Below are positions 33,282 to 64,000 of a DNA stretch of 64,000 nt, in pieces (within the stretch, counting starts at the first letter, position 1; each line of letters starts with the position of its first letter). Source of the DNA: an uncultured bacterium (GTDB lineage Bacteria; Zixibacteria; MSB-5A5; UBA10806); NCBI GenBank assembly GCA_965541585.1, contig CBEUCH010000015.1:7120-71119 (forward strand), written 5' to 3'. A program made the translations under genes and the position numbers. A model generated the notes under the pieces. The model made no database searches. It was not told the DNA's origin and saw only the letters and a list, made by a program, of their open reading frames with translations.

Positions 33282-33367
33282 GCCGGAATGGCGGAATAGG
33301 TAGACGCAAGGGACTTAAAATCCCTCGGTCCGTATGGACTGTGCCGGTTCGATTCCGGCTTCCGGCA
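33282..33367 (+). tRNA. tRNA-Leu (anticodon TAA), class II with a long variable arm
   Basis: Hand fold. The acceptor is GCCGGAA/TTCCGGC, the anticodon loop CTTAAAA, the extra arm CGGTCCGTATGGACTG, and the T-arm GCCGGTTCGATTCCGGC. Confidence 0.8.
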
Positions 33368-33476
33368 TTATAAATCACTACGAGTGAACGGGTTGCAAAA
33401 TGTGCATCGCAACCCGTTTTTTGGTGGATTGTAGGCAAGTCCTACATGAGTCCACACTTTTTGCGGTTTTTACCAG

Positions 33477-34550
33477 TCAATAAGGAAGTTTTGCCACCAT
33501 GTCGGTCTTGTATTTTTCCGCAAGATGAGCGTATATTTCTGTGGTTTTGATGGAGGAATGACCCAATAGTTCCTTTATTGCGTATAGCGGCACTCCTGCC
33601 ATCGCAAGATGTGAGGCATAGGAAAAACGTAGGGAATGGCAGCTAGCCCAGTCCAGGCCTATCGAGGAACAGGTCTTACTGATTTTCCGGCTTACTGTAT
33701 CGGGTTTCCATTGTGGGAGTTCCTTTCCTTTTTCATCCCGGGAACCAAAAACTTTATTGTCTTTTCTCCTTTGAAGTGAACCAAGCATTTTCCCAAGACC
33801 ACTTTTTTTATCAAACCCAAGGTATCTATACCTTCTACTCTTCGAATTTGACGCCCTTATTGTAATCTGGCATTTATTGAAATCAATGTCATCCCAGGTT
33901 AATGATAAGGCCTCGCGAAGCCTAACGCCCGTCCATAAATAAAAATTCACAACATCTTGGAAAACAGTTCCTTCAAACGCTTCGCGTAACTTCTCAATTT
34001 CGTCTACTTCAAGATACTTTGGTCGAGGCGCACCTTGGCTCCGTAGCATTTTGATCCTTCTAAAAGGGCTCGTTTCCATTAGCCCCCAGCTAAGAGCGGT
34101 ATTAAATATTGCCTTAAGATGACGAAGCTCTAGATTTACCGTCGATTCTGAAATATGTGAGTTTTTTCTATTTGACGGCTGGCTGAGTCTGTGTCTAACA
34201 TAACCATCAACGAGGGCGCTATTGATTGTTTTCAATTCAACGTTTCCGATGTATTTCGCAAACAATCTCAATACTCTTTCTTCTCTGTTTAAAGTCGATG
34301 GCCTCTTTACAAGACTGCAGTGATTTAAATAATCACGCATAAAATCTTCGAGTAGAATATTCTCAAATTGCCCTACTGTAGATTTGCCTTCAACAAGCTG
34401 GCTGCAAAACTTATGGTACTCTTTTTGAGCAGTCCGTTTATCAACTTCACCGATTGTTTTTAATTGATCTCTGCCATTCAATCTGTAACGAATTACCCAC
34501 ACAGATCTCCCCGTCCTGTAATTTCTTTTTTGCAATGAGGCCATCAACAC
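33477..34550 (-). CDS. int: Tyrosine site-specific recombinase (phage integrase family)
   Basis: The C-terminal catalytic region has HSLRFSYASHLAMAGVPLYAIKELLGHSSIKTTEIYAHL (R..H..R..Y signature). The N-terminus has a SAM-like core-binding domain. Confidence 0.85.
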   Translation of the reverse strand: MLMASLQKRNYRTGRSVWVIRYRLNGRDQLKTIGEVDKRTAQKEYHKFCSQLVEGKSTVGQFENILLEDFMRDYLNHCSLVKRPSTLNREERVLRLFAKYIGNVELKTINSALVDGYVRHRLSQPSNRKNSHISESTVNLELRHLKAIFNTALSWGLMETSPFRRIKMLRSQGAPRPKYLEVDEIEKLREAFEGTVFQDVVNFYLWTGVRLREALSLTWDDIDFNKCQITIRASNSKSRRYRYLGFDKKSGLGKMLGSLQRRKDNKVFGSRDEKGKELPQWKPDTVSRKISKTCSSIGLDWASCHSLRFSYASHLAMAGVPLYAIKELLGHSSIKTTEIYAHLAEKYKTDMVAKLPY

Positions 34551-34565
34551 TCACCTCCTTTCCGG

Positions 34566-34793
34566 CTATTTGATAAAGTTGATTTTTTGTTTGAATTCGT
34601 TTTCCTCGATGAAATGAACGACCTGGTCGTAGGTGAAACAGATTGAATTTCGGCCGTATCGAGTACAGGTGATCCGCCCGGACTTTATCCAGCGAATGAC
34701 CGTGTTATAGTGGACACCCAGGAGATCAGCCACCTCACGTAAGGTCTTGGTCAATTTACCGTCGGGCCAGGTGTTCATCTCCTTATACCTCAA
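34566..34793 (-). CDS. Excisionase-like / MerR-type HTH DNA-binding protein
   Basis: It is a 75-aa protein with the HTH LREVADLLGVHYNTVIRWIKSGRI, positioned directly upstream of int, which is the classic xis position. Confidence 0.5.
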   Translation of the reverse strand: MRYKEMNTWPDGKLTKTLREVADLLGVHYNTVIRWIKSGRITCTRYGRNSICFTYDQVVHFIEENEFKQKINFIK

Positions 34794-34874
34794 AAATTAA
34801 TCCCAAAATCACCTCCCGGCGAAAAATATAGCCCAAAAAAACACCGGGAGGCTTCGGAACGCCTACAAACGTTC

Positions 34875-35339
34875 CTACGTTTGACTGCCTGACGGACTAT
34901 TTTTTAGTCCGTGGCCGAATTCGATGAACAATTTATTGGCATTGACCAGATGCTCAAACATGTCCCGCATATCGCCAATCAATCTCTCAAGCGATTTTCC
35001 GATTTCATCAACCGATTCGAACCTATGCTCCTTAGCTATATGATGAGATAAATTCCCAATGATGATCGTCCATTCATGCAAAAAACCTCGAGTGAGAGAT
35101 TCATAATTCTTCAGATCATCCAAGGATTGGAATTCTCTGGCTGAAGATGCGAGTTGATCCAGCCTGGGGAGGATGTAATCAGTATATGCTCGAACCGAGA
35201 TATACGTTTCGCCATTTTTATCCTCCAGGGCATCCGCGTCAGCAAGGATGTCCATCGCAGCTCTGCGCTGACTATCATCAAGGCGGAGCGCTTTAAAATG
35301 GTCTTCCAACAGTACGTGGAAATCGCCTTTATCTTTCAT
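34875..35339 (-). CDS. Hypothetical protein, member A of a divergent paralog pair
   Basis: It is alignable to the 35433..35924 product (DADALEDKNGETYISVRAYTDYI vs DKADALSQENEIEYISFKTYSTFM; the C-terminal regions are also collinear). It matches no known family. Confidence 0.4.
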   Translation of the reverse strand: MKDKGDFHVLLEDHFKALRLDDSQRRAAMDILADADALEDKNGETYISVRAYTDYILPRLDQLASSAREFQSLDDLKNYESLTRGFLHEWTIIIGNLSHHIAKEHRFESVDEIGKSLERLIGDMRDMFEHLVNANKLFIEFGHGLKNSPSGSQT

Positions 35340-35432
35340 TGTTTTACCTCCATTTTTGGTTTGTAAGAATGTCAGCGTTTTTTTAGGGTCGCCCTAGTCG
35401 CCGCAATAAAGACGGCGACTAGAGCAGTAAGG

Positions 35433-35924
35433 TTATTCGCATTCATGCAAGTTATGGCCTTCCGCGTAAGCCCTTAGGATCTCATCCGACGGAGGTGGGG
35501 CACCCATATCAAAGAGGATTTTGTGGCTGGATATGCAATGGTCGACCAGGCTTTTCAACTCAGAATTTACGGTCACCCACGCCTGAAAAAGGTCGCTCCT
35601 GATGGCACTATTACGTGGATCAACCGCCATGTTCATTATATCCACGCCGAATAACATCCATTCCTTCACCAGCTTGGCCGCCAGCGACGCATAAAAACTG
35701 TAGTCCTCCTCGGTCTGCGACTCAACTGCCATATTCTCCAATCCACTTAGGGCGTCATGCATAAATGTTGAATAGGTCTTGAATGAAATGTATTCGATTT
35801 CGTTTTCTTGGGATAAGGCGTCAGCTTTATCGAATACGGCACGGATTGATTTACGGCAATTGTCGCATTTTCCTTTAGTGTGGAGATCAAAAGGGATTAA
35901 GACGTCTTTTTCTAATCTTGTCAT
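35433..35924 (-). CDS. Hypothetical protein, member B of the paralog pair. The listed ORF extends to 35987; ATG 35924 has AAGGA 6 nt upstream.
   Basis: See 34875..35339. It adds an N-terminal CDNC Cys pair. Confidence 0.4.
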   Translation of the reverse strand: MTRLEKDVLIPFDLHTKGKCDNCRKSIRAVFDKADALSQENEIEYISFKTYSTFMHDALSGLENMAVESQTEEDYSFYASLAAKLVKEWMLFGVDIMNMAVDPRNSAIRSDLFQAWVTVNSELKSLVDHCISSHKILFDMGAPPPSDEILRAYAEGHNLHECE

Positions 35925-35998
35925 TTTTTTCCTTTCATTTTTGTACCCGGTCGCCTCATAGTGGTGGCGACAGGAACCTGATCGCATTCAAGTGCAAA

Positions 35999-36868
35999 TC
36001 AGACATCGTACATCGTGCCAGGGCCAACAAACCTTACCCTGATTTCCTTTATCCTTTCTCCCCAGCCTTCTACCTCACCGATCAAAGCTTCGACGTCGTA
36101 AGCACCATCGCCGAGCCCAGCTGGGATCAGAACCGCAATTCCTTCTCCTATCTGGTAGCCTCTCTTAAAGCCATCCACAATCTCTTGTATTGGATGGATA
36201 TCACTGTGGAAATGACATGGATCGAAGACCATGACATACCCGCTATCAACATTAATCTGGCCAATCGTGGTCCACATGTCCTCTACGGCTGTCTCCTTGT
36301 TCGTTGTCGCAGATACCGGTTCTCCTCCAGAGTGATATTTTTTCGCTGTTCCTTCACGCTTCCTGTTCTCAAGGAAGGAATCGACCCGTTTTTTCTCCTC
36401 GGGGATGAGCTTTCCAAGACGATCCTCAGCCTCTTCTAATGTCTTCAGATCTGCATCGAGCTCGCCATAAACATCGCGGTATTCATGAGCGAGATCCAGC
36501 CGCTTACCAGGGTCATCTTCCTGTAGCATCTTGCTGAAGGTTTCTTTTAGCTTAATTTCTTTTAACAAGGATAGGGTGGCCAATCGATAAGTAATGCCTC
36601 GAAGTTTACCGATGGAATTGATCGTATTAACTATTTTGGACGGCTCGATAATTCCCCTGCCAGTCTGCCCTGGGGACTTGAGTTCGCCCAGCTGTCCCAG
36701 AAGTAGGGACGATAAACGTATGTAATTGTTCTCGCCTATTCTGATAAGAGCGTCGTGAATTGAGGCTTGGATCTCCAGGGTTTTCTGATCAATGCCAGAT
36801 ACATTGGAGTAAGCTTCTGCCAACACGAGGTCGCCGAAAACATCAAGTAGTTTGTTTTGATTTTCCAT
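35999..36868 (-). CDS. Hypothetical protein (289 aa)
   Basis: The ORF is long and open, and tightly packed with its neighbours on the same strand. No motif is recognised (no GGDEF/CD-NTase/mCpol signatures were seen). Confidence 0.4.
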   Translation of the reverse strand: MENQNKLLDVFGDLVLAEAYSNVSGIDQKTLEIQASIHDALIRIGENNYIRLSSLLLGQLGELKSPGQTGRGIIEPSKIVNTINSIGKLRGITYRLATLSLLKEIKLKETFSKMLQEDDPGKRLDLAHEYRDVYGELDADLKTLEEAEDRLGKLIPEEKKRVDSFLENRKREGTAKKYHSGGEPVSATTNKETAVEDMWTTIGQINVDSGYVMVFDPCHFHSDIHPIQEIVDGFKRGYQIGEGIAVLIPAGLGDGAYDVEALIGEVEGWGERIKEIRVRFVGPGTMYDV

Positions 36869-36940
36869 TTATTTCGTTCTCCTATTTTTATGCCCGGCGC
36901 CGGATGGAACGGCGACGCGGGCGTTAATGGTCAACAGTTA

Positions 36941-37480
36941 CTACTTGACTGGCTCGGCGACAGGTGTCGCTCCTTCTTCCGGACCTCCATCCTCGGCAGA
37001 GTCGTTAGCTTCCAAATCGTCAAGCATCGCTCTTCGCTCAGCCTGTACGCGTTTCAAACCCTGCGTGGCATCTTCGAGATTCTTGCGGTGGCGTTCAAGA
37101 TCGGTCTCCAATGTGCTTTTCTCCCCGCGTAAACTGTAGATCTCGTCATCGGAGGTAGCGTCTTTAAGCAAGGCTTCGATTGCTTTTAGCCTCCGCTCTT
37201 TCTTCTTAATGATGTCAGGCAATCTTTTCAGATTCGATTTGAGGATGCCGATCTGTTTGGTATCCGCCAAGGTCTTGCCGGTCTTCGAGCGTTCGCTTAC
37301 TTTGGAATTGAATGCCCTCAGAACGTTGGCATCCCACTCCTCCAGGCAGATATGTGGCGCCCCGGCATACTCGAAGAGAATACCGGCTTTCGATGCCTCC
37401 TCGGTCACTTTATCAACATCAGAATATTCCCGAAGTTCGGCCAACTGTTGAATTGTTAAAATTGTCTTTGGGGATTTCAA
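36941..37480 (-). CDS. Hypothetical coiled-coil protein (179 aa)
   Basis: The central region is charged and heptad-like (KKKERRLKAIEALLKDA...LETDLERHRKNLEDATQGLKRVQAERRAML). Confidence 0.35.
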   Translation of the reverse strand: MKSPKTILTIQQLAELREYSDVDKVTEEASKAGILFEYAGAPHICLEEWDANVLRAFNSKVSERSKTGKTLADTKQIGILKSNLKRLPDIIKKKERRLKAIEALLKDATSDDEIYSLRGEKSTLETDLERHRKNLEDATQGLKRVQAERRAMLDDLEANDSAEDGGPEEGATPVAEPVK

Positions 37481-37859
37481 AGAAAACCTCCTATGATAAA
37501 AGTTAAATTTTCATTATCTCATCTACTTGATAGTAGAAACGGGTTGTAGTGGGGTTCCTCCTTTCAGTCAGCATTCATTGACGATTAATTGGTCCATCCT
37601 TAATAATGTGACCGGTCACGAAAGCTCGACTCCTTCCCTGATAATTTCAAAACCTCCGAGATTCACAGGGGCAATCGTTCCATCAGCGCTTGCACATTCT
37701 TCTAACTAAAAAATTATCGGGGTTCACAAAATATAATGGATGATGTAAGCCACTATCTTGTGCTATAAACACTTAGAGAGAAAAAATAATTATAAAAAAA
37801 AAGATAATATTTTATTTGTATTATTGGAGGCTAATTACGGAGAGATAAACTACAAAATA

Positions 37860-39758
37860 TCAGCGATCAGAGCGCCGATAAATCTTAAATATTGAACAAT
37901 AATAACCCATATCCCTATCGCATTCTATTAGATTTTCTTCTATTTTGAAAAAATGGCGCAATCGCTCATTTGTTTCTGAAATGTTTACTATTAAAGTGGC
38001 ATCAGTCTTCTTATAATGTAATATTCCGTTACTATCAGCCAGCTTACCCAGCACCTCTTCGTAAGGCCTAATTGAATTTCTTTTTGATTTTATATTCTGA
38101 AAACCCATCTCCTTAAACGTTCTAATTTCTGTTGGATGCTTTTTCCTAACATCATTGATATCAAATTTACATGAATCGTCTGCGAAACCAACTACAAGCT
38201 GCTTCCATTCAATTCCGGGTGGCAATATAAATGGGATTATTGAATCAATCGCTTCTTGTGGGATAGACGGTTTTTTCTCTTTGGCTTTTTGTTCTCTATC
38301 TATTAATAAACTATCTGGAAGTTCAGTCAAAGTGTTTTCATTATCATCAGCGAGGAGTACTGTTCGTTCAATTACTGACCGCAGTTCCCTTATGTTGCCC
38401 TCTTTCCAGCTGTGTAATTTTAGTTTCTTTAATAGATCTTTGGAAACTTTCCGGATATTTTTCCTGAATTGTTTCGAGAATTCAGCAATAAACAGGTTAA
38501 CAAACTTTTCAATATCGTCGCTTCTTTCTCTTAAAGGAGGTATATGTATCTCATAAGTATTTATCCGATGATAAAAATCCTCTCTCATAATGTTATTATC
38601 TATTAAGTGACGTGGTTTTTTGCTCAATGTCATAACTATTTTAATATCTGTTTTTATACTCTTGGTAAAGCCCTGTTCCTGTATTTCCCCCTTATCTAAA
38701 AACCTCAGCATCTTTCCCTGAAAATCATAAGGCATATCATTGACATTATCTAAAAATACTGTCCCTTTATCAGCCTGTTCAAAGATGCCCTTTTGATTGT
38801 GTATCCCTTCCAAAAAAGGTCTATTCTTGGCGCCGAATAGATAATACTCGAATGCAGCATTTGCAATCTCGGAGCAGTAAACAACATAGAACGGTTCCCT
38901 GTTTCTATTACTTTTGCCATGAAAATAGCGCGCAATAACATCTTTTCCGGTTCCGGGCTCACCGTTAAGTAATATGATTTTTGCTTCATCATACTTAGCG
39001 ATTTTTTCAACCTCTGATAAAACATTCTTAAAATTTGGAGCATCCCCGATTATAGTGAAAGGCTGATCAGCTATTTTCATAATTGCCGGTTTTGCCTGGT
39101 CAACATATGTCTGAATATTCCCGACGAGATCAGAATAACTGTCCGTATCTCCGAGAATATTAGCATACTTTTCACCAAGCCGGGCGAATGGGATTTCCTC
39201 AAGAGCGATATCGGCATTCTCACCCTTCCGCGGATAGAAATAATCTGGTGTCATGATGCCCTCGGGGTGTCGAAGGTAATAAAGATGATCTTGTTTTCTG
39301 CCTAATATTGTTAAGGCGAGTCCCAAATAAACGGACATTATTCTTCTTCCGCCCGCATATATACAGTGTAATTCTGTATCGGGGTCTTTTGTCAAGTTCC
39401 TAAGTAAATTCGCAATTTTATTCGCGGTCATTTCAAATTGTTCTGGAGTCTTTATATCATCCTGGATATTTCCTTTCTCATCTTCAATCATATAGATATC
39501 TTCTTCAGTAAATTTGGGGAATGTTTTATATTCCGCGCAAAACTTGCTGAAGACTTTGTTTTCGCCGAGTAAAGGGGGCATACCTGTTCTAGGATTACCC
39601 ATAAAGAGTTCGTCCCTGCCAATTGATGTTGTGATTAAGACTATTCTTTCAATATCGATGGGTCGCGGCCGTTTTCGGGTTCTAAAATACCAAAGCGACA
39701 GTGTTATAACGTTAGGGATGTTACCGAAGACGCCAAATAGCAAGTGCATCTTTTTCAT
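37860..39758 (-). CDS. Three-part protein: an N-terminal CARF-like Rossmann sensor domain, a degenerate sigma54-activator-type AAA+ core (GAFTGA absent, Walker B DE changed to DN), and a C-terminal 170-aa unknown domain with no Fis HTH
   Basis: The AAA+ core shows Walker A GEPGTGKDVIARYFH, an EYYLFG...RPFLEG segment replacing ESELFGHEKGAFTGA, Walker B VFLDNV, and IHIPPLRERSDDI plus SWKEGNIRELRSVIERTVLL (sensor II). The N-terminus has IVLITTSIG and IYAGGRRIMS, resembling CARF motifs hTLGTS and DxTSGTKAMS. Confidence 0.6.
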   Translation of the reverse strand: MKKMHLLFGVFGNIPNVITLSLWYFRTRKRPRPIDIERIVLITTSIGRDELFMGNPRTGMPPLLGENKVFSKFCAEYKTFPKFTEEDIYMIEDEKGNIQDDIKTPEQFEMTANKIANLLRNLTKDPDTELHCIYAGGRRIMSVYLGLALTILGRKQDHLYYLRHPEGIMTPDYFYPRKGENADIALEEIPFARLGEKYANILGDTDSYSDLVGNIQTYVDQAKPAIMKIADQPFTIIGDAPNFKNVLSEVEKIAKYDEAKIILLNGEPGTGKDVIARYFHGKSNRNREPFYVVYCSEIANAAFEYYLFGAKNRPFLEGIHNQKGIFEQADKGTVFLDNVNDMPYDFQGKMLRFLDKGEIQEQGFTKSIKTDIKIVMTLSKKPRHLIDNNIMREDFYHRINTYEIHIPPLRERSDDIEKFVNLFIAEFSKQFRKNIRKVSKDLLKKLKLHSWKEGNIRELRSVIERTVLLADDNENTLTELPDSLLIDREQKAKEKKPSIPQEAIDSIIPFILPPGIEWKQLVVGFADDSCKFDINDVRKKHPTEIRTFKEMGFQNIKSKRNSIRPYEEVLGKLADSNGILHYKKTDATLIVNISETNERLRHFFKIEENLIECDRDMGYYCSIFKIYRRSDR

Positions 39759-40343
39759 GTTTGGCTCTCCTTAAAAATGCTCCACGTACCTTGAATGTGA
39801 TATCTGCCTCTGATCTATTCTACATTTTCAATCGGGCGAGATCGCCTTTTCTAATCGCAAATTCATTTTAGCTCAAATCAGTAAGATTGTAAAGCGGATC
39901 TCGTAACGCTAAGTGTCTGATTCATCAAACTCTCCATTTATCGTATTAGAATAGCGCTTTTATGGCTTATTTCTAACGATTCTGTGGCCAATGCGATTTA
40001 TTATTTGCGTCACTATCATGTTTCTTCCCCCTCGTTTTTATGGCACCACGGCAAAGGCCTCTGAGGCGCAATCGCCAGCCGGTTTGCCATAGTATCCGCC
40101 GTTAACTCGATACGACTGATTTGCAATTCTATGTCTGCCAATGGCTTATGTTTGCTGCATCGGGGTCCGAAACCAACCCGACCATCTACCAACGACTTAT
40201 GGGGATCGACGGGTGGCCCCAGAGTGCCTCCGAAATTTCAAACCGCTCAGGGACGATTTTGGGCCGTCTTCTCGTGACATCGAAATTCCATAAAATCTAC
40301 ACTAAATCGAGCTAGCGGGAAGAAGAAAAAGTAAAAAAACATT

Positions 40344-40372
40344 TGACAAAGCTACAATGTTTTAGTATAATT
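40344..40372 (+). promoter_or_regulatory. Consensus sigma70 promoter giving a leaderless transcript for the XRE gene
   Basis: TTGACA, then 17 nt, then TATAAT. The predicted transcription start is at or about 1 nt before ATG 40378. Confidence 0.45.
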
Positions 40373-40377
40373 AGTAT

Positions 40378-40824
40378 ATGAAAGAAACCCCTGATTTGAA
40401 ATCGCTCCGTCTGGCGCAAAAGCTAACCTTGGCCGAAGTGGCACTACGCATGGACGTTTCCAAAGGTTTTGTATGCCATCTGGAGAACGGAATCAGAAGA
40501 CTAAACGATGATCTGACCAAGCGGCTGGCAGCGGCTCTGGACTGTCCGGAAAACGAGGTATGGAAAGCCAGCCAACGTTCTGGCGAAAAGAATACGATTT
40601 CCAATAGCTGGATCTCTCAGGTAAGGATCAATGGCTATCCAGTTTTCGATGCTTTCAAGTATCATCTTGAAGCGAAGAAGAAAAAACCTGATGTCAGAAA
40701 TAGGGCAAGGCTCAGAAAACAGCTCGCACAATTCATAAGTGAGAACCTGCCGTTTTCGGTGATGGCTGAACTTTCAGAGAATGACATATTGCTGGACCAG
40801 GTTGTTGAGCACTGCAAAAAGTAA
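40378..40824 (+). CDS. XRE-family HTH transcriptional regulator (repressor-like) with a C-terminal extension
   Basis: The HTH is LTLAEVALRMDVSKGFVCHLENGIRRLNDDLTKRLAAAL (Cro/C1 type). It is divergent from the minus-strand operon, as phage repressors usually are. Confidence 0.6.
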   Translation: MKETPDLKSLRLAQKLTLAEVALRMDVSKGFVCHLENGIRRLNDDLTKRLAAALDCPENEVWKASQRSGEKNTISNSWISQVRINGYPVFDAFKYHLEAKKKKPDVRNRARLRKQLAQFISENLPFSVMAELSENDILLDQVVEHCKK

Positions 40825-40948: not shown

Positions 40949-41176
40949 ATGAATACAAAAGACATGAACTACGCAGCATATTTGCTGGCGAATAATCAAA
41001 AATTAGAAAACTGCTATGCTGAAGGACGCCGATTCTGGTTTGTGTTTTCGGATGATAAGGTTATTAATACGCTTGAAGAGCAGTATTATATGAATACTGG
41101 GGCTATTAAACCTCAGCACTTTATTAACGCGCAGAAAATATTGAAAAATCTGATAAGAAACTTCCGACCAGTATAG
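40949..41176 (+). CDS. Small hypothetical protein (75 aa)
   Basis: It is an open frame between the repressor-like gene and the primase. No motif is recognised. Confidence 0.3.
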   Translation: MNTKDMNYAAYLLANNQKLENCYAEGRRFWFVFSDDKVINTLEEQYYMNTGAIKPQHFINAQKILKNLIRNFRPV

Positions 41177-44004: not shown

Positions 44005-44303
44005 AAATATATCATGACGTACAGAAAGAAATTCATACCCGAAGCTAATCTGAGGAAGATAATAAAACATCCAAACCATCCAAGACTTGATAACGAAGAG
44101 AAACCTAAACCACAATATGAGGACGGTAGTGGTTTCTTGGCCGAGATGCGCCAGCTTGACTTTGCAGCTGACGAAGCCCTCAAATCCCACGCGGCGACTA
44201 CAAGTTAAGGGGGGTACACGCCATTAACCAGAGAATATTAGAAGAACACTTATGAAATAATATCCAAGCAGGTAATGTTCAACAATTTAACCAGCAATAA
44301 ATA

Positions 44304-46483: not shown

Positions 46484-46503
46484 CCGAGAACTAACTTGAG
46501 GTT

Positions 46504-56076: not shown

Positions 56077-56904
56077 TTATTCACCTGGTTCACTTTCGTC
56101 AAGCGCAGAATTATCCGTTTTTGATTTTTCTTCTTGAAAGATAAGAATTGAAAGCGGTATTAACAACAAAATTACTAAAGTGAACGCGATAAATGCTAGG
56201 GAATTGTTTCCCACCCAAGCCTTAAAGCCATGTAATTCGGTTGGGTAATCAATCTTTACAGACCCAGACGAAAAACTAACCCGAGTATCTTTTTCATCAA
56301 ATTTGCTGTCGAGCTTATCTGCCCAGCAAACGACTCTGATTCCTTCTCCAGGCAATAGTGAACCTAAATCAATCCTGTGGTCATATTTCTCATTTCTATC
56401 CTCTTTTCCGATGTGCTCTATGAAACAGTAACCTGAAGAAGGTAGTTGCAAAACAAGCCCTTTTACTTCCCTGCTACCGTCATTTTGAATTCTAAAGGTC
56501 CAATACGACCTCAAATCATATATAACGTCACTATAATCGGGTAATCTACTTCGTAGGAAAGCGGAAATATTATTGCCGTGATCTTGGGGAGATAAACAGC
56601 TGTCTACCTCGATTCGTAGAACGGAGTCTATACTATCAGAGTATTCACGGCCTAGGACATTATTAATGAAATCAACAATCGGGTAAGGATCATAATGCTC
56701 ATGATGGGAGCCTGTTGCTTTGATGTCGAAATCTTTCGTAAATATTACGCCGTATAATTGAATTGCGTAATACACTGATCCAGGAATACCAAAAACAGCA
56801 ATGATCCATGGAAGCCAAAATTTGACTCTAAAATTCATCACTTTTCCTTCCTTAAAAGGACTTACGACCTCTATGAATTTATCAAATTTGAACAAGACTG
56901 TCAA
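56077..56904 (-). CDS. Hypothetical membrane protein (N- and C-terminal TM helices)
   Basis: It has the hydrophobic segments FWLPWIIAVFGIPGSVYYAIQLYGVIF and LAFIAFTLVILLLIPLSILIF. Internal ATG 56838 is an alternative start. Confidence 0.35.
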   Translation of the reverse strand: MTVLFKFDKFIEVVSPFKEGKVMNFRVKFWLPWIIAVFGIPGSVYYAIQLYGVIFTKDFDIKATGSHHEHYDPYPIVDFINNVLGREYSDSIDSVLRIEVDSCLSPQDHGNNISAFLRSRLPDYSDVIYDLRSYWTFRIQNDGSREVKGLVLQLPSSGYCFIEHIGKEDRNEKYDHRIDLGSLLPGEGIRVVCWADKLDSKFDEKDTRVSFSSGSVKIDYPTELHGFKAWVGNNSLAFIAFTLVILLLIPLSILIFQEEKSKTDNSALDESEPGE

Positions 56905-57141: not shown

Positions 57142-57864
57142 TTGGATGATAAAATGTTGAAGACAGGCCAAATCCAGAAAGCCTTGGTCGAAGCTGGCTT
57201 TAATCCCGAAGAGGAACTGCTGAATCTGGAATCATCCGGCAGTGGTTTTGAAGTCCCTAGGATTAGGATCGATCATAAAGACTCGGGAAAACACCGTATC
57301 TATATTGACCACGGAGAGAACTACCTTGGCGGGGACACCCAGGAAGAGACCCTACCCGAGAGCACATTTCAGGCAGTCGTATTCGCGGAGCAGGACATCA
57401 GGGCCCTTTGGACAGATGGTATAGCACTGCCAATCTGCAGTGGAATAGACGGAAAGCCGATGGTGAACGATCCGGTTAGCCCGAGCTGTATGAATTGCGA
57501 GGAAGCAATCATCAACCGGGGCAAGTGCAAACCGAAAATCAGACTATGGCTGCTTCTCGAAAAAGAGGGACAGATCAGGCCATTTGTAATGAGCCTGAGT
57601 CCGACATCGATCAAACACTGGAACCAGCATAAAAGAAAGCTGAAGAGGTCGAGGCTTCCTGTCGTTGCGGTAACCACTGTCTTCAGTCTTCAGGACGTAA
57701 AGAAGAACAGCTACAGATGGGCGGAAGTCCTGTTTGACGTTGCCGGGAGGCCATCGATGGATACGCTTCAGATGGCCAAACAGGCCCGGGATGAGTTGGA
57801 TCGGGTGATGCAGGACATCACGGTCAGAGACTTTGAGGATTCTGGGGAACAGTCTGGGAGCTAA
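57142..57864 (+). CDS. Hypothetical protein (240 aa), upstream partner of the large helicase gene
   Basis: An open frame with a CSGIDG...CMNCEE...CKPK Cys cluster. No family is recognised. Confidence 0.4.
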   Translation: MDDKMLKTGQIQKALVEAGFNPEEELLNLESSGSGFEVPRIRIDHKDSGKHRIYIDHGENYLGGDTQEETLPESTFQAVVFAEQDIRALWTDGIALPICSGIDGKPMVNDPVSPSCMNCEEAIINRGKCKPKIRLWLLLEKEGQIRPFVMSLSPTSIKHWNQHKRKLKRSRLPVVAVTTVFSLQDVKKNSYRWAEVLFDVAGRPSMDTLQMAKQARDELDRVMQDITVRDFEDSGEQSGS

Positions 57865-58049: not shown

Positions 58050-61000
58050 ATGGAAAATGAAAAATATGATAAAGGCGAAAGCGCAATGAAGGCCTGGTTT
58101 GATTCCTTCCGAATAAGAGACTGGATTGACATGGCAGAGCTAACCGAGAGGATTTCAGTATTTTCCGAAAAGGAATCACAATTTCTCCACAAAATGGCGG
58201 AATTGGCTGAGCAAGGTCCCCCTCCCACTGTTAAGCAAATTGGATTTGCTCAGAGTATTGTCGATAAGATTGGACTATCAAGAGGCGACCGTCCGATATC
58301 TGGCGAAATAAAGGTGGAGAAGATACTGGACAATAAAACCGCAGACAAAACTATGCACCTGACAGTACGCCTTGCTTGGCACTCTGACGGATGGAATGGA
58401 AACATATGTACCGCACCCGATAAGAATGATTACTGCGTAGGAGAACATTCGCTGTTATCAAAGAGGGTGAGGGAAAACAGAAACCTAGCAACTGAGTCAG
58501 AGCTCGCTGGGTGCAAATGTGACGAAGGCCACAATAAAGACTATCAGGCTCCATGTTACTGGTCCATCAATGCGTTGGGTGACTCTCCTATTCATTGTCA
58601 GCACGAACACGCAATTGAGAGAGGAGCACCTAAAATCGGAGAAGATCTTCCTCCCTATTCGGTTTTCACATGGCCTTTCAAACTATTTTTTTCCAGAAGC
58701 AAAGAGGAAAAGGAAAAAAACGGTAAATACCCTCCTATGCAGGAAGACAAGGCAATGCGCTTCTTCGGTAAATTTTCAGAAGGAAATTCTATAGTATTCC
58801 TTTATTGTAATTACGACAATCCGATTTCGGGTGACGACCAAAAATATCTGTTAGTCGGCTGTGGGTTGCTTAAAGGGAAAGGCAAATTAAGCCATTTTAA
58901 TATATCACGCGAGCGAATGAGTTGGTGGCAAGCTAAAAAAGAATTTAAAAACTTCTCCAATCTGAATTGGAGTTATAGAATCTCAATGGATCTGCCTAAG
59001 ATGGGCGTAATTATCCCGTATCACAATTATCTCAGACACGCCGTAGAAAATGATAATTACGCTTATCTCAACGAAATAAAGATAATAATTGATGAACCGG
59101 AGCTTATACCCGGCTTCAAATATGTGGCTATGGATATTGATGACGATCAGGCGATATACCTGCTTACTAAGATAAGAAAAAGCCTTTATAAGATGAAGGA
59201 ACAAGCTTTCTTAACAAAAACTGAATTTAATCTGGATGATGCAATAAGAAAGGCAGAATACTTGCTGGGTCTATGTTGGAACAAGAGAGGTTATCTTCCT
59301 GGTCTGGGGAAACTCGCACGGATATTTCTGGATCGCAGCAAGGCCGAGCCACTTAGATTAGACGAGTTATTTTCAACTATGACAGGCAGTGCAGATGCAG
59401 TTGAAGAGCTTATAAGTCTGCTAAATGATCCAGAAAACCTCCCCGATGAAATGGATGATTATTATGACGAGTTATCTGACTTGCACGATACGATAAGGTC
59501 TAAAGGTTTATCAACAGAGGAATTCATTCGGCTCTCAGCGTTAGACCTTACTGATCATCAATTTAGACGAATTGTACAAGGTAGGATCTCCGATAATGGT
59601 GTTGGGCTCAAGGATATATGCAATAATCCCTATGTCCTTTGCGAGGAATATCAGATAAGTGATTATGATCATATAGAGGACCCAATAACGGGTGACCAGA
59701 TCGATGGGTTGATACACGTATTTAAAATAGATATCGCATATTATCCTGATGTAAGATTTCAAAAGAAGCTAAAGTTGCTTCACAGGATGACGAGTGATGA
59801 TCCTCGAAGGATAAGAGCGCTAGCGATATCTTATCTTAGGGGAGTAGAGGAAAGCGGTGATTGTTTTGAAAGTGGAGTCGAACTGGGAAAGAGGCTCATG
59901 GAATATCCTTTGTTTTACAAATCTATTTATCTATTGCGAGAAGATATCTTAACTCATCCCGACAGGCCTCTGGAGAGCCATTTAGCAGAGAAGATAGTAA
60001 TAGAAAGAGATACTGAAAATCAAAGGATATTTTATTATTTAAAAGAAATCTATGAAGCTGAAAGATCCGTTGAAGATGCCATTAACTTTCTTCTCAGGCA
60101 GCCAGATATTGAAATCGCTCCACAATTGGGCGTCGGTGAATCGGCAACGTATCTTAAAAATAAACTGGGAGAAAGATTCAGGGAAGGACAATTTCTATTG
60201 GAACGCAGTAAGCTCTATGAGAAGATTCTAAAGAAAAGGGTTTTTGTTCTTTCTGGAGGACCAGGAACTGGTAAGTCGTTTGAACTTTTAAAGTTAATAG
60301 ATGTACTCAAGCAGGACGGGCAAAATTATCTGCTGCTTTGTCCCACAGGCAAGGCCACGTTACGACTTAAGAATAATGATGAGGGATTTGGAAATATCAT
60401 TGCTCGGACAATTGACAAATTCTTTGCCGAAAGAAAAAAGGAAAAGAATAGCAGATATGTCGTCGAAAACCTAATAATTGATGAATTTTCCATGGTAGAC
60501 TTGAAAAAAATGAGGGATTTGCTTGATATAGTAAGAGTGAAATCCCAGGATTTCAAGAGACTTATATTAGTTGGTGACGAGCATCAGCTTCCACCAATCG
60601 GGTATGGAAGAGTCCTTTATGATATAGTTAATTATTTGAAGAGAGATGCCCGCTATGAGGCTAATAATTATATTCGTCTGGAAACCAATTGCCGCCAAGA
60701 GTATGATGAAAACATAGTAAAGTTTGCTAGAATATTCTCCAGACAAGAAAGAAATCCGGAGCATTTACTGACGAAGATGGCTAAAGGCGGGAACGTATCA
60801 AAAGGATTATTAATACAATATTGGAACTCTCGAGAACAGCTATATGAGTTAATAACCTCGACATTTGCAAATATATTCGGAGACCAAAATACCGGCATCG
60901 ATCTTGATCTTTTGATAAACACAGTGTTTGGCTTAGAACAGGACGGAACCATCGATGAGAGTGACTCCCGATTCAATGAAAGTCTTAAAGTTGATAGGTT

Positions 61001-61964
61001 CCAAATAATATCTCCATACAGAACCGGGTTCTTCGGGGCGCTGGGTTTGAACAACTATGTTCAAGAGAAATTCAAAGGTAAGCAGAGTTTCATTCCTCGC
61101 CTTTCTTTGAAGCACGGGGATAAAATAATGCAGATTGAGAATATGTATAGTAATGATGGTAGAGAACTACTAATATCAAATGGCTCCCTCGGTGTTGTCC
61201 AGCAAAGAGGACAGTATGGAAAGTCGTTTTACTTTCTGGAAAGATCCAAACCTTTCACCCGCCTCAAAGAGGAGTCATTTGAGTTGGCCTATGCCATCAC
61301 GGTGCATAAGTCCCAGGGCAGTGGCTTTGACCATGTATTCTTCATTGTACCTTCAAAAAGCACGCTGCTGTCAAGAGAGCTAGTTTACACTGCTATGACC
61401 AGGTCTAAATTAGGCATTTCTATTTTTGTACACGATGCAGGGAAGATTGAAAGTAGGGCTAATAAATTCCACGAGATCATCAACAAATCAAGCGTAGAAT
61501 TACGTAAAACAAGCCTAATGGGAAAATATTACTGGGAATTTTCTTTGAATCCTGCTCCCGATGTGTATGTGAGATCTAGAGCAGAATATATCATTTATAA
61601 AAGCCTTTTAGAATTCAAAAAACAGGAAAGCAGTTTCTCGTTCGCCTACGAGAATCCTCTTGAGATTGATGAAGAATTATCTATAAAACCAGATTTCATA
61701 CTGATTACCCCGAAGGGCGAATTCTATTGGGAACACCTAGGCCGCCTTGGTGACATACACTACGAAGGATCTTGGCAAAGTAGGCGAAAGTTATATGAAA
61801 GAAAGGGTCTAATTGACAATTTGATTACCACCGACGAGCTTCTTGGCATACACGATAGCAAGATCAAAAAGATAATATTTCAAATTTGTCGTGGAAAGCT
61901 ATCTTCAGATAGAGAAGATGAAAAGTACTCATTACACCATTATCAGCTATCAGATTATTCTTAA
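58050..61964 (+). CDS. Large multidomain protein: an N-terminal 650-aa Cys/His-rich unknown region, a RecD/TraA-like SF1 helicase core, and a C-terminal Vsr/DUF559-like (PD-(D/E)xK) nuclease fold
   Basis: The helicase motifs are VFVLSGGPGTGKS (I), LLCPTGKATLRL (Ia), LIIDEFSMVD (II), LILVGDEHQLPPIG (III) and AITVHKSQGSGFD (V/VI). The C-terminal SRAEYIIYKSLLEF...KPDFILITPKGEFYWEHLG resembles a DUF559/Vsr-type endonuclease. Confidence 0.6.
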   Translation: MENEKYDKGESAMKAWFDSFRIRDWIDMAELTERISVFSEKESQFLHKMAELAEQGPPPTVKQIGFAQSIVDKIGLSRGDRPISGEIKVEKILDNKTADKTMHLTVRLAWHSDGWNGNICTAPDKNDYCVGEHSLLSKRVRENRNLATESELAGCKCDEGHNKDYQAPCYWSINALGDSPIHCQHEHAIERGAPKIGEDLPPYSVFTWPFKLFFSRSKEEKEKNGKYPPMQEDKAMRFFGKFSEGNSIVFLYCNYDNPISGDDQKYLLVGCGLLKGKGKLSHFNISRERMSWWQAKKEFKNFSNLNWSYRISMDLPKMGVIIPYHNYLRHAVENDNYAYLNEIKIIIDEPELIPGFKYVAMDIDDDQAIYLLTKIRKSLYKMKEQAFLTKTEFNLDDAIRKAEYLLGLCWNKRGYLPGLGKLARIFLDRSKAEPLRLDELFSTMTGSADAVEELISLLNDPENLPDEMDDYYDELSDLHDTIRSKGLSTEEFIRLSALDLTDHQFRRIVQGRISDNGVGLKDICNNPYVLCEEYQISDYDHIEDPITGDQIDGLIHVFKIDIAYYPDVRFQKKLKLLHRMTSDDPRRIRALAISYLRGVEESGDCFESGVELGKRLMEYPLFYKSIYLLREDILTHPDRPLESHLAEKIVIERDTENQRIFYYLKEIYEAERSVEDAINFLLRQPDIEIAPQLGVGESATYLKNKLGERFREGQFLLERSKLYEKILKKRVFVLSGGPGTGKSFELLKLIDVLKQDGQNYLLLCPTGKATLRLKNNDEGFGNIIARTIDKFFAERKKEKNSRYVVENLIIDEFSMVDLKKMRDLLDIVRVKSQDFKRLILVGDEHQLPPIGYGRVLYDIVNYLKRDARYEANNYIRLETNCRQEYDENIVKFARIFSRQERNPEHLLTKMAKGGNVSKGLLIQYWNSREQLYELITSTFANIFGDQNTGIDLDLLINTVFGLEQDGTIDESDSRFNESLKVDRFQIISPYRTGFFGALGLNNYVQEKFKGKQSFIPRLSLKHGDKIMQIENMYSNDGRELLISNGSLGVVQQRGQYGKSFYFLERSKPFTRLKEESFELAYAITVHKSQGSGFDHVFFIVPSKSTLLSRELVYTAMTRSKLGISIFVHDAGKIESRANKFHEIINKSSVELRKTSLMGKYYWEFSLNPAPDVYVRSRAEYIIYKSLLEFKKQESSFSFAYENPLEIDEELSIKPDFILITPKGEFYWEHLGRLGDIHYEGSWQSRRKLYERKGLIDNLITTDELLGIHDSKIKKIIFQICRGKLSSDREDEKYSLHHYQLSDYS

Positions 61965-62100
61965 AAGACGGGATGGCATTTATATCTGAGCTGTCAAAAA
62001 GAGAAAGGCGTTGAAGTGCAATAGCCATGCGCTTGAGATACCCATACTTATCTGAGAGCGACCTCATCTTTACGCGAAAATGACTTAGAAAAAGGTAAGA

Positions 62101-62838
62101 ATGTCTAAAAGGGAACGCGGCAGCCGTAAACATATTCTGGAACTTGTCAATAAATCGGATTTCGTTAATGTAATGAACGATCTGCTGGATTCTCATGGAA
62201 TTGTATTCGCAGGTCAGGATCGACAACAGCCCAATACGAATAGTAAAGAAGAGTGGACACTCCGTCAATTCTGCAGTCAGCATTGCCAGGATTCCTTTGA
62301 TTTCGCCAGCTTTGACAAATGGTGGGTACCGGATAAATATAAGAATCCGACGTGGGATTTATTATCGACATGCGTCATTAAGGGACGACCAGGCCTACTA
62401 CTGGTCGAAGCTAAAGCGCATGAGGAGGAGCTGCATTTTGAAGGCAAAGAACTCGGAAACAACGCTTCGGAGCAATCCCGAAAAAACCACGAGCGGATTC
62501 GTCAATGCATAGAACAAGCCAACAAATCGTTAAATGAAAGGCGTGGAGGTTTCAATATTAGTATCGATAAATGCTATCAACTTAGTAACCGAGTGGCATC
62601 CGCCTGGAAGCTTGCGGAATGCGGTTTGCCAACAGTACTACTTTATTTGGGTTTCATTGGAGACAAGTACTTCGAAAATTATTTCATTGATTATGGCCAT
62701 TGGCAGAGGATGATGGGCGCACATATTATAAATGTCGTGCCGCTTTCGTTTCCCAGCAAAAATTTAGAATTTGAAAAAGAAGTGACTTTAATGATGTTAA
62801 TAAAATCATTACCAATCTTATCTGAGGGTATTTCTTAA
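62101..62838 (+). CDS. Hypothetical protein with a possible PD-(D/E)xK nuclease core
   Basis: TWDLLSTCV...GLLLVEAKAHEEE could be a D...(E)VEAK restriction-endonuclease-like motif. The evidence is weak. Confidence 0.3.
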   Translation: MSKRERGSRKHILELVNKSDFVNVMNDLLDSHGIVFAGQDRQQPNTNSKEEWTLRQFCSQHCQDSFDFASFDKWWVPDKYKNPTWDLLSTCVIKGRPGLLLVEAKAHEEELHFEGKELGNNASEQSRKNHERIRQCIEQANKSLNERRGGFNISIDKCYQLSNRVASAWKLAECGLPTVLLYLGFIGDKYFENYFIDYGHWQRMMGAHIINVVPLSFPSKNLEFEKEVTLMMLIKSLPILSEGIS

Positions 62839-62842
62839 TTTA

Positions 62843-63811
62843 TTGGTTATACCGCTTATATTTAGGTTTGCGGGGAACGCTATCAGAATTATGAAGCTTA
62901 AAAAAGACCAAAGATGGGATGGTTGGCCCGCAATTGATGAAGAATACTTTGATTCCCTCGCGGCGAACTTAACATTAAGACCAGAAATACCAAAACAGAT
63001 CCACCGCCTCATTAAACAAATGAAGTCGGTCTTAAGATTTTGCTATTTTGATTACGAATTGATTGGAATTACTAATCTTTTATCAGTGCTCGCATTTGAA
63101 ACTGCATTGAATCTTAAGTATCAAGAAATGGTTCCTGCGGAAGACCAAAATGCAAAAATTAGTCTTTTTCAGCTTATCAAATGGGGTGAAAGGGAAAATC
63201 TGTTTGAAGAGCACATAGATTCACTCCATTCGTTAAGGAAGGTTCGCAATATGTATGCTCACCCAAAGGATGCTATGATTTTTGGAATCATGGGGATTCA
63301 TTCAACAATAAAAATAATTGATTTAATCAATGGAATATATGATAGCCGGATAGATTATAGAATTAAACGTAAAAGAAAGACAGATAGGATTAATCGAGTT
63401 CTTTTCCACCGTTCGAAAGAAGGATTGATTCTCCAATTAGAGGATTTACGGCTTATCGTTTTTGATTCACGCCTTATTCTCTATAATAACCTCTCTTCAG
63501 ATCCAGAATATTATTTTTGGATATATCCGATATTTGAAATCAAAGAAGACGCGACAGAAGTAGATGAGAAGAAGCCGATTATACTGCACTGTAAATCCAT
63601 CAAATTTAAGAAATCAAGCGATGGTTGGAAGATGGTTATTGGAGAATCAACCTTGACAGAGATTGCTGGAAAAGAGGATAAGGAAAAATTCCGCCTCTGG
63701 CAAGAAAAACTCAATTCCTGTAAACTGCCTATTAAGTTTGCTATTGATCAAAGATACAATGATTTACGACGAGAGCTAATGTCGGATAAAATATACAAGT
63801 GGGCAGATTAA
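62843..63811 (+). CDS. HEPN-domain protein of Abi_2/AbiD-like type (R-x2-RN-x2-AH motif)
   Basis: SLRKVRNMYAHP matches the Rx4-6H HEPN catalytic motif in the RNxxAH form seen in AbiD/AbiF-type abortive infection proteins. It is 322 aa. Confidence 0.4.
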   Translation: MVIPLIFRFAGNAIRIMKLKKDQRWDGWPAIDEEYFDSLAANLTLRPEIPKQIHRLIKQMKSVLRFCYFDYELIGITNLLSVLAFETALNLKYQEMVPAEDQNAKISLFQLIKWGERENLFEEHIDSLHSLRKVRNMYAHPKDAMIFGIMGIHSTIKIIDLINGIYDSRIDYRIKRKRKTDRINRVLFHRSKEGLILQLEDLRLIVFDSRLILYNNLSSDPEYYFWIYPIFEIKEDATEVDEKKPIILHCKSIKFKKSSDGWKMVIGESTLTEIAGKEDKEKFRLWQEKLNSCKLPIKFAIDQRYNDLRRELMSDKIYKWAD

Positions 63812-63857
63812 GTATATTGATCAAGGTTGTTTAGGGTATAAGGAACTTTAATGATTC

Positions 63858-64000
63858 TTATTTTCTGCGGACCCTGGTTTTAAATATAACCTCCGCAACC
63901 TCCCTAACCATCACAACATCATCAGCAGACTTCCGCTTCAATAGCTTCATCAAATCATCCAGAGCAAACTGAGCCTTCGTCTTCTTCTCCGGAAAATCAA
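63858..64000 (-). CDS. Partial CDS (C-terminal 47 codons) entering from the right edge
   Basis: The minus-strand frame is open from the window edge to stop TAA at 63860-63858 (…DFPEKKTKAQFALDDLMKLLKRKSADDVVMVREVAEVIFKTRVRRK). Identity is unknown. Confidence 0.2.
   Translation of the reverse strand, partial: DFPEKKTKAQFALDDLMKLLKRKSADDVVMVREVAEVIFKTRVRRK

Follow-up and report, generated by a model that had tools for sequence, protein, structure and literature searches.

What lies beside the tRNA-Leu gene of this uncultured bacterium, and does it move as one piece together with the defense genes that it holds? We analyzed a 64,000-nucleotide stretch of contig CBEUCH010000015.1 (the window, to whose positions all coordinates refer), in which a preliminary description, made from the sequence alone, had seen an integrated element of at least 30 kb resembling P4-like satellites or phage-inducible chromosomal islands (PICIs). 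The region right of tRNA-Leu is foreign DNA at a tRNA gene and combines modules for integration and for replication with stacked defense systems. The feature is real; the satellite label and the size as a single unit are unproven. The reading that we consider likely is that of an integrated copy of an uncharacterized family of integrative, self-replicating elements, built from a backbone and, after a terminator, a slot for cargo.

Integration site and compositional boundary

The tRNA-Leu(TAA) gene (33281-33368, plus strand; called by ARAGORN and scoring 61 bits with the Rfam tRNA model) is intact and provides the host anchor, presumably on the attL side. A compositional shift at about 33.4 kb, earlier proposed as a check, is present in two measures. 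The GC content falls from 48.7% in 1-33280 to 41.6% in 33369-64000 (Mann-Whitney p = 6e-10, an approximate value as the 2-kb windows tested overlap), and the correlation with the host tetranucleotide profile drops from 0.86-0.92 (1-28 kb) to values of 0.37-0.61 beyond 32 kb. Both shifts start at the tRNA gene and last until the end of the window. The low-GC region extends past 64 kb: the translation places the 3' end of an additional gene at 63866-64000 (minus strand), leaving the window, and the GC content of 63-64 kb is 0.36. The integrase, excisionase-like helix-turn-helix (HTH) protein, XRE repressor, prim-pol/D5 gene and iterons that had been read directly after tRNA-Leu were all confirmed in place.

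A conserved backbone with a variable cargo slot

We compared, by tblastn, the genomic contexts of primase homologs from independent assemblies and metagenomes. The related loci have in common a backbone that in the window spans about 11.5 kb (33.4-44.8 kb) and consists of an integrase (int), an excisionase-like gene (xis), small open reading frames (ORFs), a regulator whose position is constant, the XRE gene, a DUF5659 gene, the primase, the iteron region and two ORFs that we call o64, a small one not recognized before, and o160. Protein identities across the loci are 40-46% for the integrase, 49-56% for the excisionase-like protein, 51-69% for o179 (one of the small ORFs), 71-88% for the DUF5659 protein, 49-88% for the primase, 60-78% for o64 and 64-75% for o160. 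In three family members the integrase is adjacent to a tRNA gene, each time a different one: next to tRNA-Leu(TAA) in the window, L081 (within a 1.4-Mb contig) adjoins tRNA-Met and L084 adjoins tRNA-Leu(CAA).

The primase has 13 homologs in the identity range given above, besides its 100% self-match. Against 50,697 phage and 72,556 plasmid records its identity is at most 27% (at most 26% in the phage records), and no relatives were found among IMG/VR viral contigs. As judged from these searches, the backbone family is uncharacterized and has no close homologs in known phages, plasmids or satellites.

To the right of 44.8 kb, the related loci have nothing in common with the window. The backbone ends in a strong intrinsic terminator (44801-44835, plus strand) with a 10-bp stem, eight GC pairs and a T-run, and in a four-locus DNA alignment the similarity is lost immediately past it, at ~44,835. 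The cargo beyond differs from locus to locus: L081 carries a PLD-SNF2 gene together with type ISP/Eco57I and NucS genes, L082 a PDDEXK restriction endonuclease with UvrD/PDDEXK_1, and L083 a uracil-DNA glycosylase (UDG) with a 1,957-amino-acid DEAD helicase. A conserved backbone followed by differing defense-type genes argues for a mobile family with a cargo hotspot. On this comparative evidence, the family occupies different tRNA genes and carries different defense cargo at one fixed position, and the earlier claim of a defense-carrying integrated element is supported at the family level by the differing tRNAs, the differing cargo and the single fixed slot.

One related locus, L083 (10001-12013), is a remnant in which the primase is cut to 670 amino acids and abuts host polysaccharide genes. 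It has no integrase side and keeps the origin, o64, o160 and its own cargo.

Attachment sites and extent of the element

A number of results weigh against an integrated, mobile copy. The repeat of the tRNA-Leu 3' end that would define attR was looked for within the window and not found: exact and mismatch-tolerant scans gave no copy of at least 10 nt of the tRNA 3' region in 34.6-64 kb, and neither the tRNA 3' 22-mer nor any k-mer of at least 10 nt taken from this region or from the flank downstream of it occurs a second time in the window. In L081 and L084, too, no tRNA repeat lies within ±10 kb. Searches for an empty site or a syntenic relative gave no support, as the relatives of the prolyl oligopeptidase that adjoins the tRNA (at most 68% identity, in species-representative genomes) have no tRNA-Leu nearby, and an exact 41-mer of the tRNA 3' half had no match in JGI metagenome contigs. 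Copies of the family decay, as seen in the L083 remnant and in an insertion sequence (IS) in the regulatory region of L081, and cargo could have accreted beside the element instead of inside it.

Such observations would suit a fixed, immobile genomic island, domesticated and left with decayed att sites: attR was found neither here nor in L081 or L084, and the truncated primase of L083 and the IS insertion of L081 are visible signs of decay in the family. In the window, however, all backbone ORFs are intact and full-length in comparison with their homologs, the promoter, iterons and terminator are preserved, the strong compositional contrast persists, and the window ends before the island does. 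We therefore regard a fixed island as unlikely.

The extent of the mobile unit is a separate matter. Because no attR lies in the window, the size of at least 30 kb rests on composition only, and the 11.5-kb backbone might move by itself, the defense genes being a pre-existing or accreted island at the tRNA that does not move along. The sharp end of family conservation at ~44,835 would agree with this, as would the truncated backbone left beside other genes in L083 and the absence of an attR farther right within the window; accretion of this kind at tRNAs is described by the tycheposon model (10.1101/2020.12.28.424599). Yet the junction at 44.8 kb shows no att-like repeat, the best matches being at chance level (null windows scored as high in 14% of cases for the window and 4.6% for L081), and with the integrase beside the tRNA an older island should lie past an attR, of which none was found in the window. 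The cargo matches the backbone in GC content (41.4% and 41.8%) and both are unlike the host (48.7%), the right flank in three related loci consists of defense-type genes co-oriented with the backbone operon, and 44.8-64 kb contains no integrase remnants, tRNA fragments or duplicated backbone genes. We hold a mobile backbone beside a stationary island to be possible but rather doubtful; the equal GC content of backbone and cargo and the lack of a second integrase, a backbone paralog or a tRNA fragment in the cargo indirectly favor the whole of at least 30.6 kb as one unit. A tandem arrangement of elements was considered and rejected, with no second integrase and no backbone paralog in 44.8-64 kb.

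Replication module

The likely reading of an integrative, self-replicating element draws on the rightward half of the backbone. A gene for a small DUF5659 protein (40949-41176, plus strand; DUF5659 at 2.8e-8), 88% identical in L082 and 71% in L081, precedes the gene for an 841-amino-acid replication protein (41242-43767, plus strand, with a probable start at 41287). The latter combines a primase of the archaeo-eukaryotic primase (AEP)/prim-pol type with D5_N, a superfamily 3 (SF3) helicase (DUF5906) and a Pox_D5 C terminus, and its C-terminal half matches TIGR01613, the NCBIfam model for the C-terminal part of "P4 family" primases, with 174 bits (cutoff 109). No Pfam family matches the N-terminal 325 residues, which contain the conserved motifs VYVDIDD, GHGVQLYW and LRVPDTxNRKH. 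An AlphaFold model of this part (predicted local distance difference test score 77) was compared by Foldseek and matched the RepB' primase (7e-8) and the AEP domain of the cyanophage S-2L PrimPol (9e-8). The fold matches thus confirm, as far as the model goes, the prim-pol assignment made earlier.

Right after the stop codon of the replication gene lies a putative replication origin (43769-44003), in which the iteron TGTCACC occurs three times in direct orientation (43769-43794), once at 43913, inside an AT-rich spacer, and three times inverted (43977-44003). These 235 bp hold 7 of the 14 occurrences of TGTCACC in the window, for which the expectation over the whole window is 4.0 ± 2.2, and the iteron region is conserved at the DNA level in L081 and L082.

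The last two backbone genes follow on the plus strand. The start of o64 (44014-44208; 64 amino acids) is 11 nt past the inverted iterons, and its conservation in three related loci (60-78% identity in L081, L082 and L083) indicates that it is a genuine backbone gene; the region of its promoter would coincide in part with the iteron array. o160 (44304-44786) is 64-75% identical in the same three loci. Neither o64 nor o160 has a family match in Pfam or PHROGs.

Integration module and leftward genes

The leftward half of the backbone ends at the tRNA with the gene for a tyrosine integrase (33477-34550, minus strand; Phage_integrase 1.1e-23, SAM_5 1.3e-11, phrog_1 7e-61), 46% identical to the integrase of L081 and 40% to that of L084. 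Upstream of it, a small HTH_17 protein of the AlpA/excisionase-like type (34566-34793, minus strand; HTH_17 1.1e-9) matches phrog_66, "excisionase and transcriptional regulator", and has identities of 56% in L081 and 49% in L084. A weak match to a terS PHROG (E = 7e-4) comes from the HTH of this xis-like protein.

Between xis and the XRE gene lie five minus-strand genes (34875-39758) that the preliminary description did not mention. All are co-directional with xis-int, and each has a Shine-Dalgarno-like site. The first four are backbone ORFs that share a leftward operon with xis and int: o154 (34875-35339), o184 (35433-35987, probable start 35924), o289 (35999-36868), whose C terminus matches phrog_5209, and o179 (36941-37480), a coiled-coil protein; the fifth encodes the CARF-AAA+ protein discussed below. 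Apart from weak coiled-coil matches, o154, o184, o289 and o179 belong to no Pfam, PADLOC or NCBIfam family. The identity of o179 is 51% in L082 and 69% in L088, and distant homologs of the other three are present in L081, L082 and L088. We also observed that o154 and o184 (34875-35987) form one fast-evolving paralog family with 20-39% identity, of which related elements have at least two tandem copies (L088 4296-5210; L081 4231-5753).

A CARF-AAA+ protein in the backbone

The fifth leftward gene (37860-39758, minus strand) encodes a 632-amino-acid protein with a CARF (CRISPR-associated Rossmann fold) domain of the NE0113/CARF5 type, an AAA+ domain of the type found in bacterial enhancer-binding proteins (bEBPs) and a predicted winged-helix domain. 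The N terminus scores 96.9 with TIGR02584 (cutoff 80.65) and 2.5e-18 with Cas_NE0113; in PADLOC it matches CARF5 at 1.8e-38 to 4.9e-39 and Csx1 at 8.8e-29, the closest profiles being CARF5 and CARF-TM. These profile matches identify it as a true CARF domain, of the NE0113/CARF5 type. The central domain matches Sigma54_activat (1.8e-42) and NtrC1 in the PDB (1.6e-46). The C-terminal 138 amino acids have no sequence-family match and are predicted to form an OmpR-like winged helix.

An alignment of the few homologs separated two subfamilies. One (P0018, P0020 and P0021) retains the GAFTGA motif, the DE of Walker B and HTH_8, and the other, to which the window protein belongs (P0015-17 and P0019), has RPFLEG in place of GAFTGA, DN or DD in place of DE, and the novel C-terminal domain. 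The window protein, with RPFLEG, DN in Walker B and no HTH_8, keeps the AAA+ domain of a bEBP and lacks these three further features. A sigma-54-driven promoter of o179 was considered as well; no match to TGGCAC-N5-TTGC with at most two mismatches, and so no -24/-12 site, was found upstream of o179 in 37481-37859, and the idea was abandoned when GAFTGA proved to be lost.

The C-terminal domain is rarely encountered, with 17 cluster representatives among 1.84 billion proteins, and always sits at the C terminus; among 15 such proteins inspected, four have an AAA+ domain and two a CARF domain. In the related elements, it follows differing N-terminal modules (CARF-AAA+, AAA+ without CARF, or a short form), and the regulator position of the backbone is modular. 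In L082 it is filled by an AAA+ protein whose N terminus is not a CARF domain. In L081 the position is taken by a 222-amino-acid protein, alignable with the window protein's C-terminal domain (29% identity), that stands beside an IS. L088 has a CARF-AAA+ gene that is 76% identical, with a gene for 270 amino acids 23 bp upstream. The same rare domain on differing N termini suggests, from these sequence comparisons, plug-in sensors that share one output domain. The IS of L081 (7461-8628; rve and HTH_Tnp_1) lies in the regulatory region and adjoins the gene for the 222-amino-acid protein.

The upstream gene of L088 (573-1385, on a Logan contig of SRR14699983) shows, by eye, GGDEF/Cas10-palm-like motifs (GDIDNLG ... 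SGEELFLLG). Its product has no match in Pfam, PADLOC or PDB, leaving its identity as an mCpol unconfirmed, and it may be an mCpol-like cyclase partner of the CARF-AAA+ protein. The window has no counterpart of it: no gene stands directly upstream of the CARF gene, which is preceded by a 620-bp intergenic region.

On domain content, the CARF-AAA+ protein is a candidate for a regulator that senses a ligand and acts on the leftward operon, and a candidate cyclic-nucleotide-responsive switch. More speculatively, and in our estimate improbably, it could be an induction switch through which cyclic-oligonucleotide immune signals control the leftward operon, so that excision and replication would be timed to phage attack. 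The signal could then come from a type III CRISPR system or a cyclic-oligonucleotide-based antiphage signaling system (CBASS) of the host, or, alternatively, from a cognate mCpol-like cyclase as suspected in L088, with a logic like that of the Panoptes guard. If true, an induction switch of this kind would be a new infection-sensing route for a satellite-like element and a sigma-54-independent transcriptional output for CARF signaling. In the literature that we searched, we did not find a description of an NE0113-type CARF domain combined with a GAFTGA-less AAA+ domain and a winged-helix-like output, upstream of xis-int in the backbone of a mobile element.

Divergent regulatory region

The XRE-family repressor gene (40378-40824, plus strand; HTH_3 8e-9) is transcribed away from the CARF-AAA+ gene. 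Its promoter (40343-40371), TTGACA-17-TATAAT, agrees with the sigma-70 consensus in 12 of 12 positions, and the ATG follows the -10 box by only 7 nt. The XRE protein of L082 is 44% identical and its promoter layout is alike. As the near-leaderless layout recurs there, the term "leaderless" applied to this gene earlier is a fair inference.

Between the CARF-AAA+ gene and the XRE promoter lies a conserved noncoding block of 228 nt (40037-40264), with 74% identity to L088 and L089 and 67% to L082, while the adjacent intergenic DNA is not conserved. The block contains no conserved ORF and no 3-nt periodicity. We tried and rejected a noncoding RNA: there was no Rfam match, the folding z-scores of +0.2 and -1.6 were not significant, and the covariation was unsupportive. 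A metagenome scan with a two-block pattern of the conserved region recovered the L082 contig only. The block might serve as operator DNA or as a site for packaging or transfer. The divergent region also contains a direct repeat, CGCTTTTATGGC / CGTTTTTATGGC, at 39955-39966 and 40033-40044, 78 bp apart; the two copies may be operator sites, although a short repeat of two copies could also be chance.

Cargo genes and host flank

The cargo within the window amounts to at least 19 kb and was annotated with Pfam and PADLOC. PADLOC, run as had been proposed, reported MTase_I, Specificity_I, REase_I, PDC-S06, PDC-S14 and PDC-S68, of which the three PDC entries are defense candidates. Both the type I restriction-modification (R-M) and the GIY-YIG genes of the preliminary description were borne out by Pfam and PADLOC. 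The cargo starts with hsdM (44933-46483; N6_Mtase 6e-106; MTase_I), hsdS (47373-48542; Methylase_S 2e-21; Specificity_I) and hsdR (48932-52054; HSDR_N/SWI2_SNF2/T1RH-like_C; REase_I), all on the plus strand, which by their domains make up a complete type I R-M system (44933-52054). Two further plus-strand genes are interspersed: o287 (46504-47367; 287 amino acids) between hsdM and hsdS, and o121 (48558-48923; 121 amino acids) between hsdS and hsdR, the latter with a weak PADLOC match to PDC-M14A (9e-6) and Zn-ribbon/SIR2-like traces.

Directly 3' of hsdR is the gene for an AAA_13 ATPase (52155-54647, plus strand; AAA_13 1.6e-54; PDC-S06 3.6e-48). It is the ATPase that had been read as RloC-like, and its C-terminal region (residues 519-691) is PrrC-like (PrrC 2.2e-15). 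Next comes a GIY-YIG and RAMA protein (55015-55743, plus strand; RAMA 6e-10; GIY-YIG 9e-5; PDC-S14 1e-15). Two genes without family match follow, o275 (56077-56904, minus strand), in which hydrophobic stretches near both ends, read by eye, point to a membrane protein, and o240 (57142-57864, plus strand), which is Cys-rich.

The largest cargo gene (58050-61964, plus strand) encodes a RecD2-like superfamily 1B (SF1B) helicase of 1,304 amino acids with large N- and C-terminal extensions, matching PDC-S68 over its full length with 1,400 bits and containing AAA_19, AAA_30 and UvrD_C_2 (RecD2 2e-67). The helicase part of the giant helicase-nuclease reported earlier thus stands, and the nuclease part lacks the support of hidden Markov models (HMMs). 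The same protein bears on a further alternative, an integrative conjugative or mobilizable element, for it partially matches TraA-type relaxases in NCBIfam. These matches are, however, confined to the RecD-like helicase core of what is a full-length PDC-S68 defense candidate, and no relaxase, coupling protein or type IV secretion system domains occur among the annotated ORFs of 33-64 kb; we consider a conjugative or mobilizable element very improbable.

The last two complete genes, both on the plus strand, are o245 (62101-62838), without significant family match, and o306 (62891-63811), which had been called a HEPN gene. That call found no significant HMM support, the only signs being an R-x4-H (HEPN-like) motif and DUF4145 at E = 0.22. 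Altogether, the type I R-M system, PDC-S06, PDC-S14 and PDC-S68 lie within 17 kb, as in a defense island.

Left of tRNA-Leu, the genes of the host flank include those for housekeeping enzymes (PurD, glycogen synthase) and for at least five proteins with the Por_Secre_tail sorting domain of the type IX secretion system (T9SS; 4035-27839), including an S8 subtilase and two Sortilin/BNR proteins. The best relatives of the prolyl oligopeptidase adjoining the tRNA are from Zixibacteria and Ignavibacteria metagenome-assembled genomes (58-68% identity). A T9SS-bearing host of the Fibrobacteres-Chlorobi-Bacteroidetes (FCB) group, as first proposed, is therefore reasonable, and these protein matches make it possibly a relative of Zixibacteria. 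A second low-GC patch (0.38-0.43) occurs in this flank at 28000-30500; within it, 28499-29851 (minus strand) encodes a TPR-repeat protein and 30000-30434 a DUF488 protein, and tRNA-Cys (30647-30718) adjoins it.

Proposed life cycle and significance

In the proposed model, the backbone consists of two divergent transcription units around the regulatory region. The leftward unit would comprise the CARF-AAA+-winged-helix protein, the four small ORFs, the excisionase-like protein and the integrase, and the rightward unit XRE, DUF5659, the AEP-primase/SF3-helicase, the iteron origin, o64, o160 and the terminator. For excision, replication, regulation and cell exit we infer the following course. The tyrosine integrase would recombine a circular form with the 3' end of the tRNA gene. 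The XRE repressor would hold the element quiescent and, with the divergent regulator, set a lysogeny-like switch; upon induction, the leftward operon would provide Xis and Int for excision. The Rep protein would then bind the TGTCACC iterons, melt the origin, prime and unwind the DNA and replicate the circle.

Once the element is excised, its cargo would be placed between o160 and attP-int, topologically where P4 has its psu-int hotspot, and at such a place cassettes should be swappable without disturbing backbone functions. The cargo would shield the host, and hence the element, from phages. As no conjugation or packaging genes were found, we propose that the element may leave the cell by hitchhiking in phage capsids or vesicles, as has been proposed for cargo-carrying tycheposons.

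In well-studied bacteria, defense genes often ride satellites or integrative elements with fixed cargo slots, and the same design is seen here in an FCB-group lineage without cultured relatives. The 11.5-kb backbone and the terminator-delimited slot can be used as a search handle for new defense systems in these phyla, where several cargo genes, here and in the related loci, are without assigned function. The pair of origin and Rep protein could seed genetic tools for such lineages, and with the CARF-AAA+ protein of the backbone, a link from cyclic-nucleotide immune signaling to mobile-element behavior can be put to the test.

Comparison with known systems

CARF-AAA+ regulators near R-M systems were predicted in 2014 as sigma-54-dependent RtcR-like proteins (PMC4012209). 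The window protein shares with them the N-terminal CARF domain, the bEBP-type AAA+ domain, a DNA-binding output (predicted here) and the defense-rich context. It differs in its CARF domain, which is of the NE0113 and not the divergent RtcR type, in the loss of GAFTGA and of the Walker B glutamate, and in the replacement of HTH_8 by the rare domain predicted to be an OmpR-like winged helix. The mCpol-CARF guard systems called Panoptes use transmembrane (TM) effectors (PMC13577387, PMC12657218); what is shared with these are CARF5 and CARF-TM as the closest PADLOC profiles and, in L088, the possible cyclase-like gene immediately upstream, whereas the window contains neither mCpol nor a TM effector and its CARF protein has no TM domain. 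In contrast to both systems, the gene here is part of a mobile-element backbone upstream of xis-int and does not stand beside a defense effector.

P4 integrates at a tRNA-Leu gene, its alpha primase is of the Zn-ribbon/Toprim type and its immunity uses the CI RNA. P4-like satellites of Enterobacterales carry a psu-int defense hotspot (PMC9122126, PMC8628076, PMC10085698). The element resembles them in tRNA integration by a tyrosine integrase adjoining the att site, the small regulator of the AlpA/HTH_17 type with its phrog_66 match, the D5_N/SF3-helicase C-terminal half of the TIGR01613 family with iterons nearby, and the single fixed slot for varying antiphage systems between the last backbone gene and att-int. 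Unlike them, it has an AEP/prim-pol primase, of another superfamily than the alpha primase, a protein repressor of the XRE family where P4 has the CI RNA, and an FCB-group host; no Psu, Delta, Sid or Ash/epsilon was found among the backbone ORFs with Pfam, PHROG and NCBIfam. By SatelliteFinder, it has two to three of the seven P4-like core components. With PICIs, including the "Type C PICI-like" class, it shares the integrase, a divergent regulatory module, a primase-replicase with its origin alongside and accessory genes that follow the replication module; it differs in having three of the five core components, no small terminase or capsid-morphogenesis genes in 33-64 kb, and a size far larger than that of a typical PICI.

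A true phage satellite, functionally like P4 or a PICI, would be induced by a helper and packaged in hijacked capsids, and the leftward ORFs or the noncoding block would then supply the hijacking functions or the packaging site. The combination of integrase, AlpA-like regulator, primase-replicase, repressor and defense hotspot is that of P4-like elements (PMC9122126, PMC10085698), the element itself lacks transfer genes, four conserved backbone ORFs are without assigned function, and the conserved noncoding block of ~230 nt could be a cos or pac site. Opposed to this are the absence of Psu, Sid, Delta, Ash, terS, capsid-morphogenesis, portal or capsid homologs in Pfam, PHROGs and NCBIfam, the absence of primase relatives from IMG/VR and the low identity to phage and plasmid records reported above. 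The size of at least 30.6 kb also exceeds the SatelliteFinder medians of 10 kb for P4-like elements and 17.7 kb for PICI-like elements (PLEs), and with three core genes it would rank only as a "Type C" PICI (three of five core components), a class that the SatelliteFinder authors call ambiguous (PMC10085698). Since no capsid or packaging hijack genes were found, the element falls under neither the P4-like nor the full PICI definition. Of the satellite label given earlier, the logic of integrase, primase and defense hotspot holds up, while the missing hijack genes, the size and the primase type speak against it; a true satellite is, in our judgment, possible but rather doubtful.

An integrative, self-replicating element with a cargo slot, the reading that we prefer, has its counterparts in the cargo-carrying tycheposons known from Prochlorococcus and further marine bacteria (10.1101/2020.12.28.424599). 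Shared with them are the tRNA-targeting tyrosine recombinase and excisionase, the primase/helicase module, a dedicated cargo of at least 10 kb, the lack of packaging and conjugation genes, and the growth of an island beside a tRNA; tycheposons of this modular make-up show enrichment in vesicles and capsids (10.1101/2020.12.28.424599). The cargo differs, being antiphage defense here and nutrient acquisition in tycheposons. No flanking partial tRNA is seen within the window, which the island runs off, the backbone has extra regulatory and unassigned genes, and the likeness is drawn at the level of modules. In function, the element most resembles cargo-carrying tycheposons and the hotspot logic of P4.

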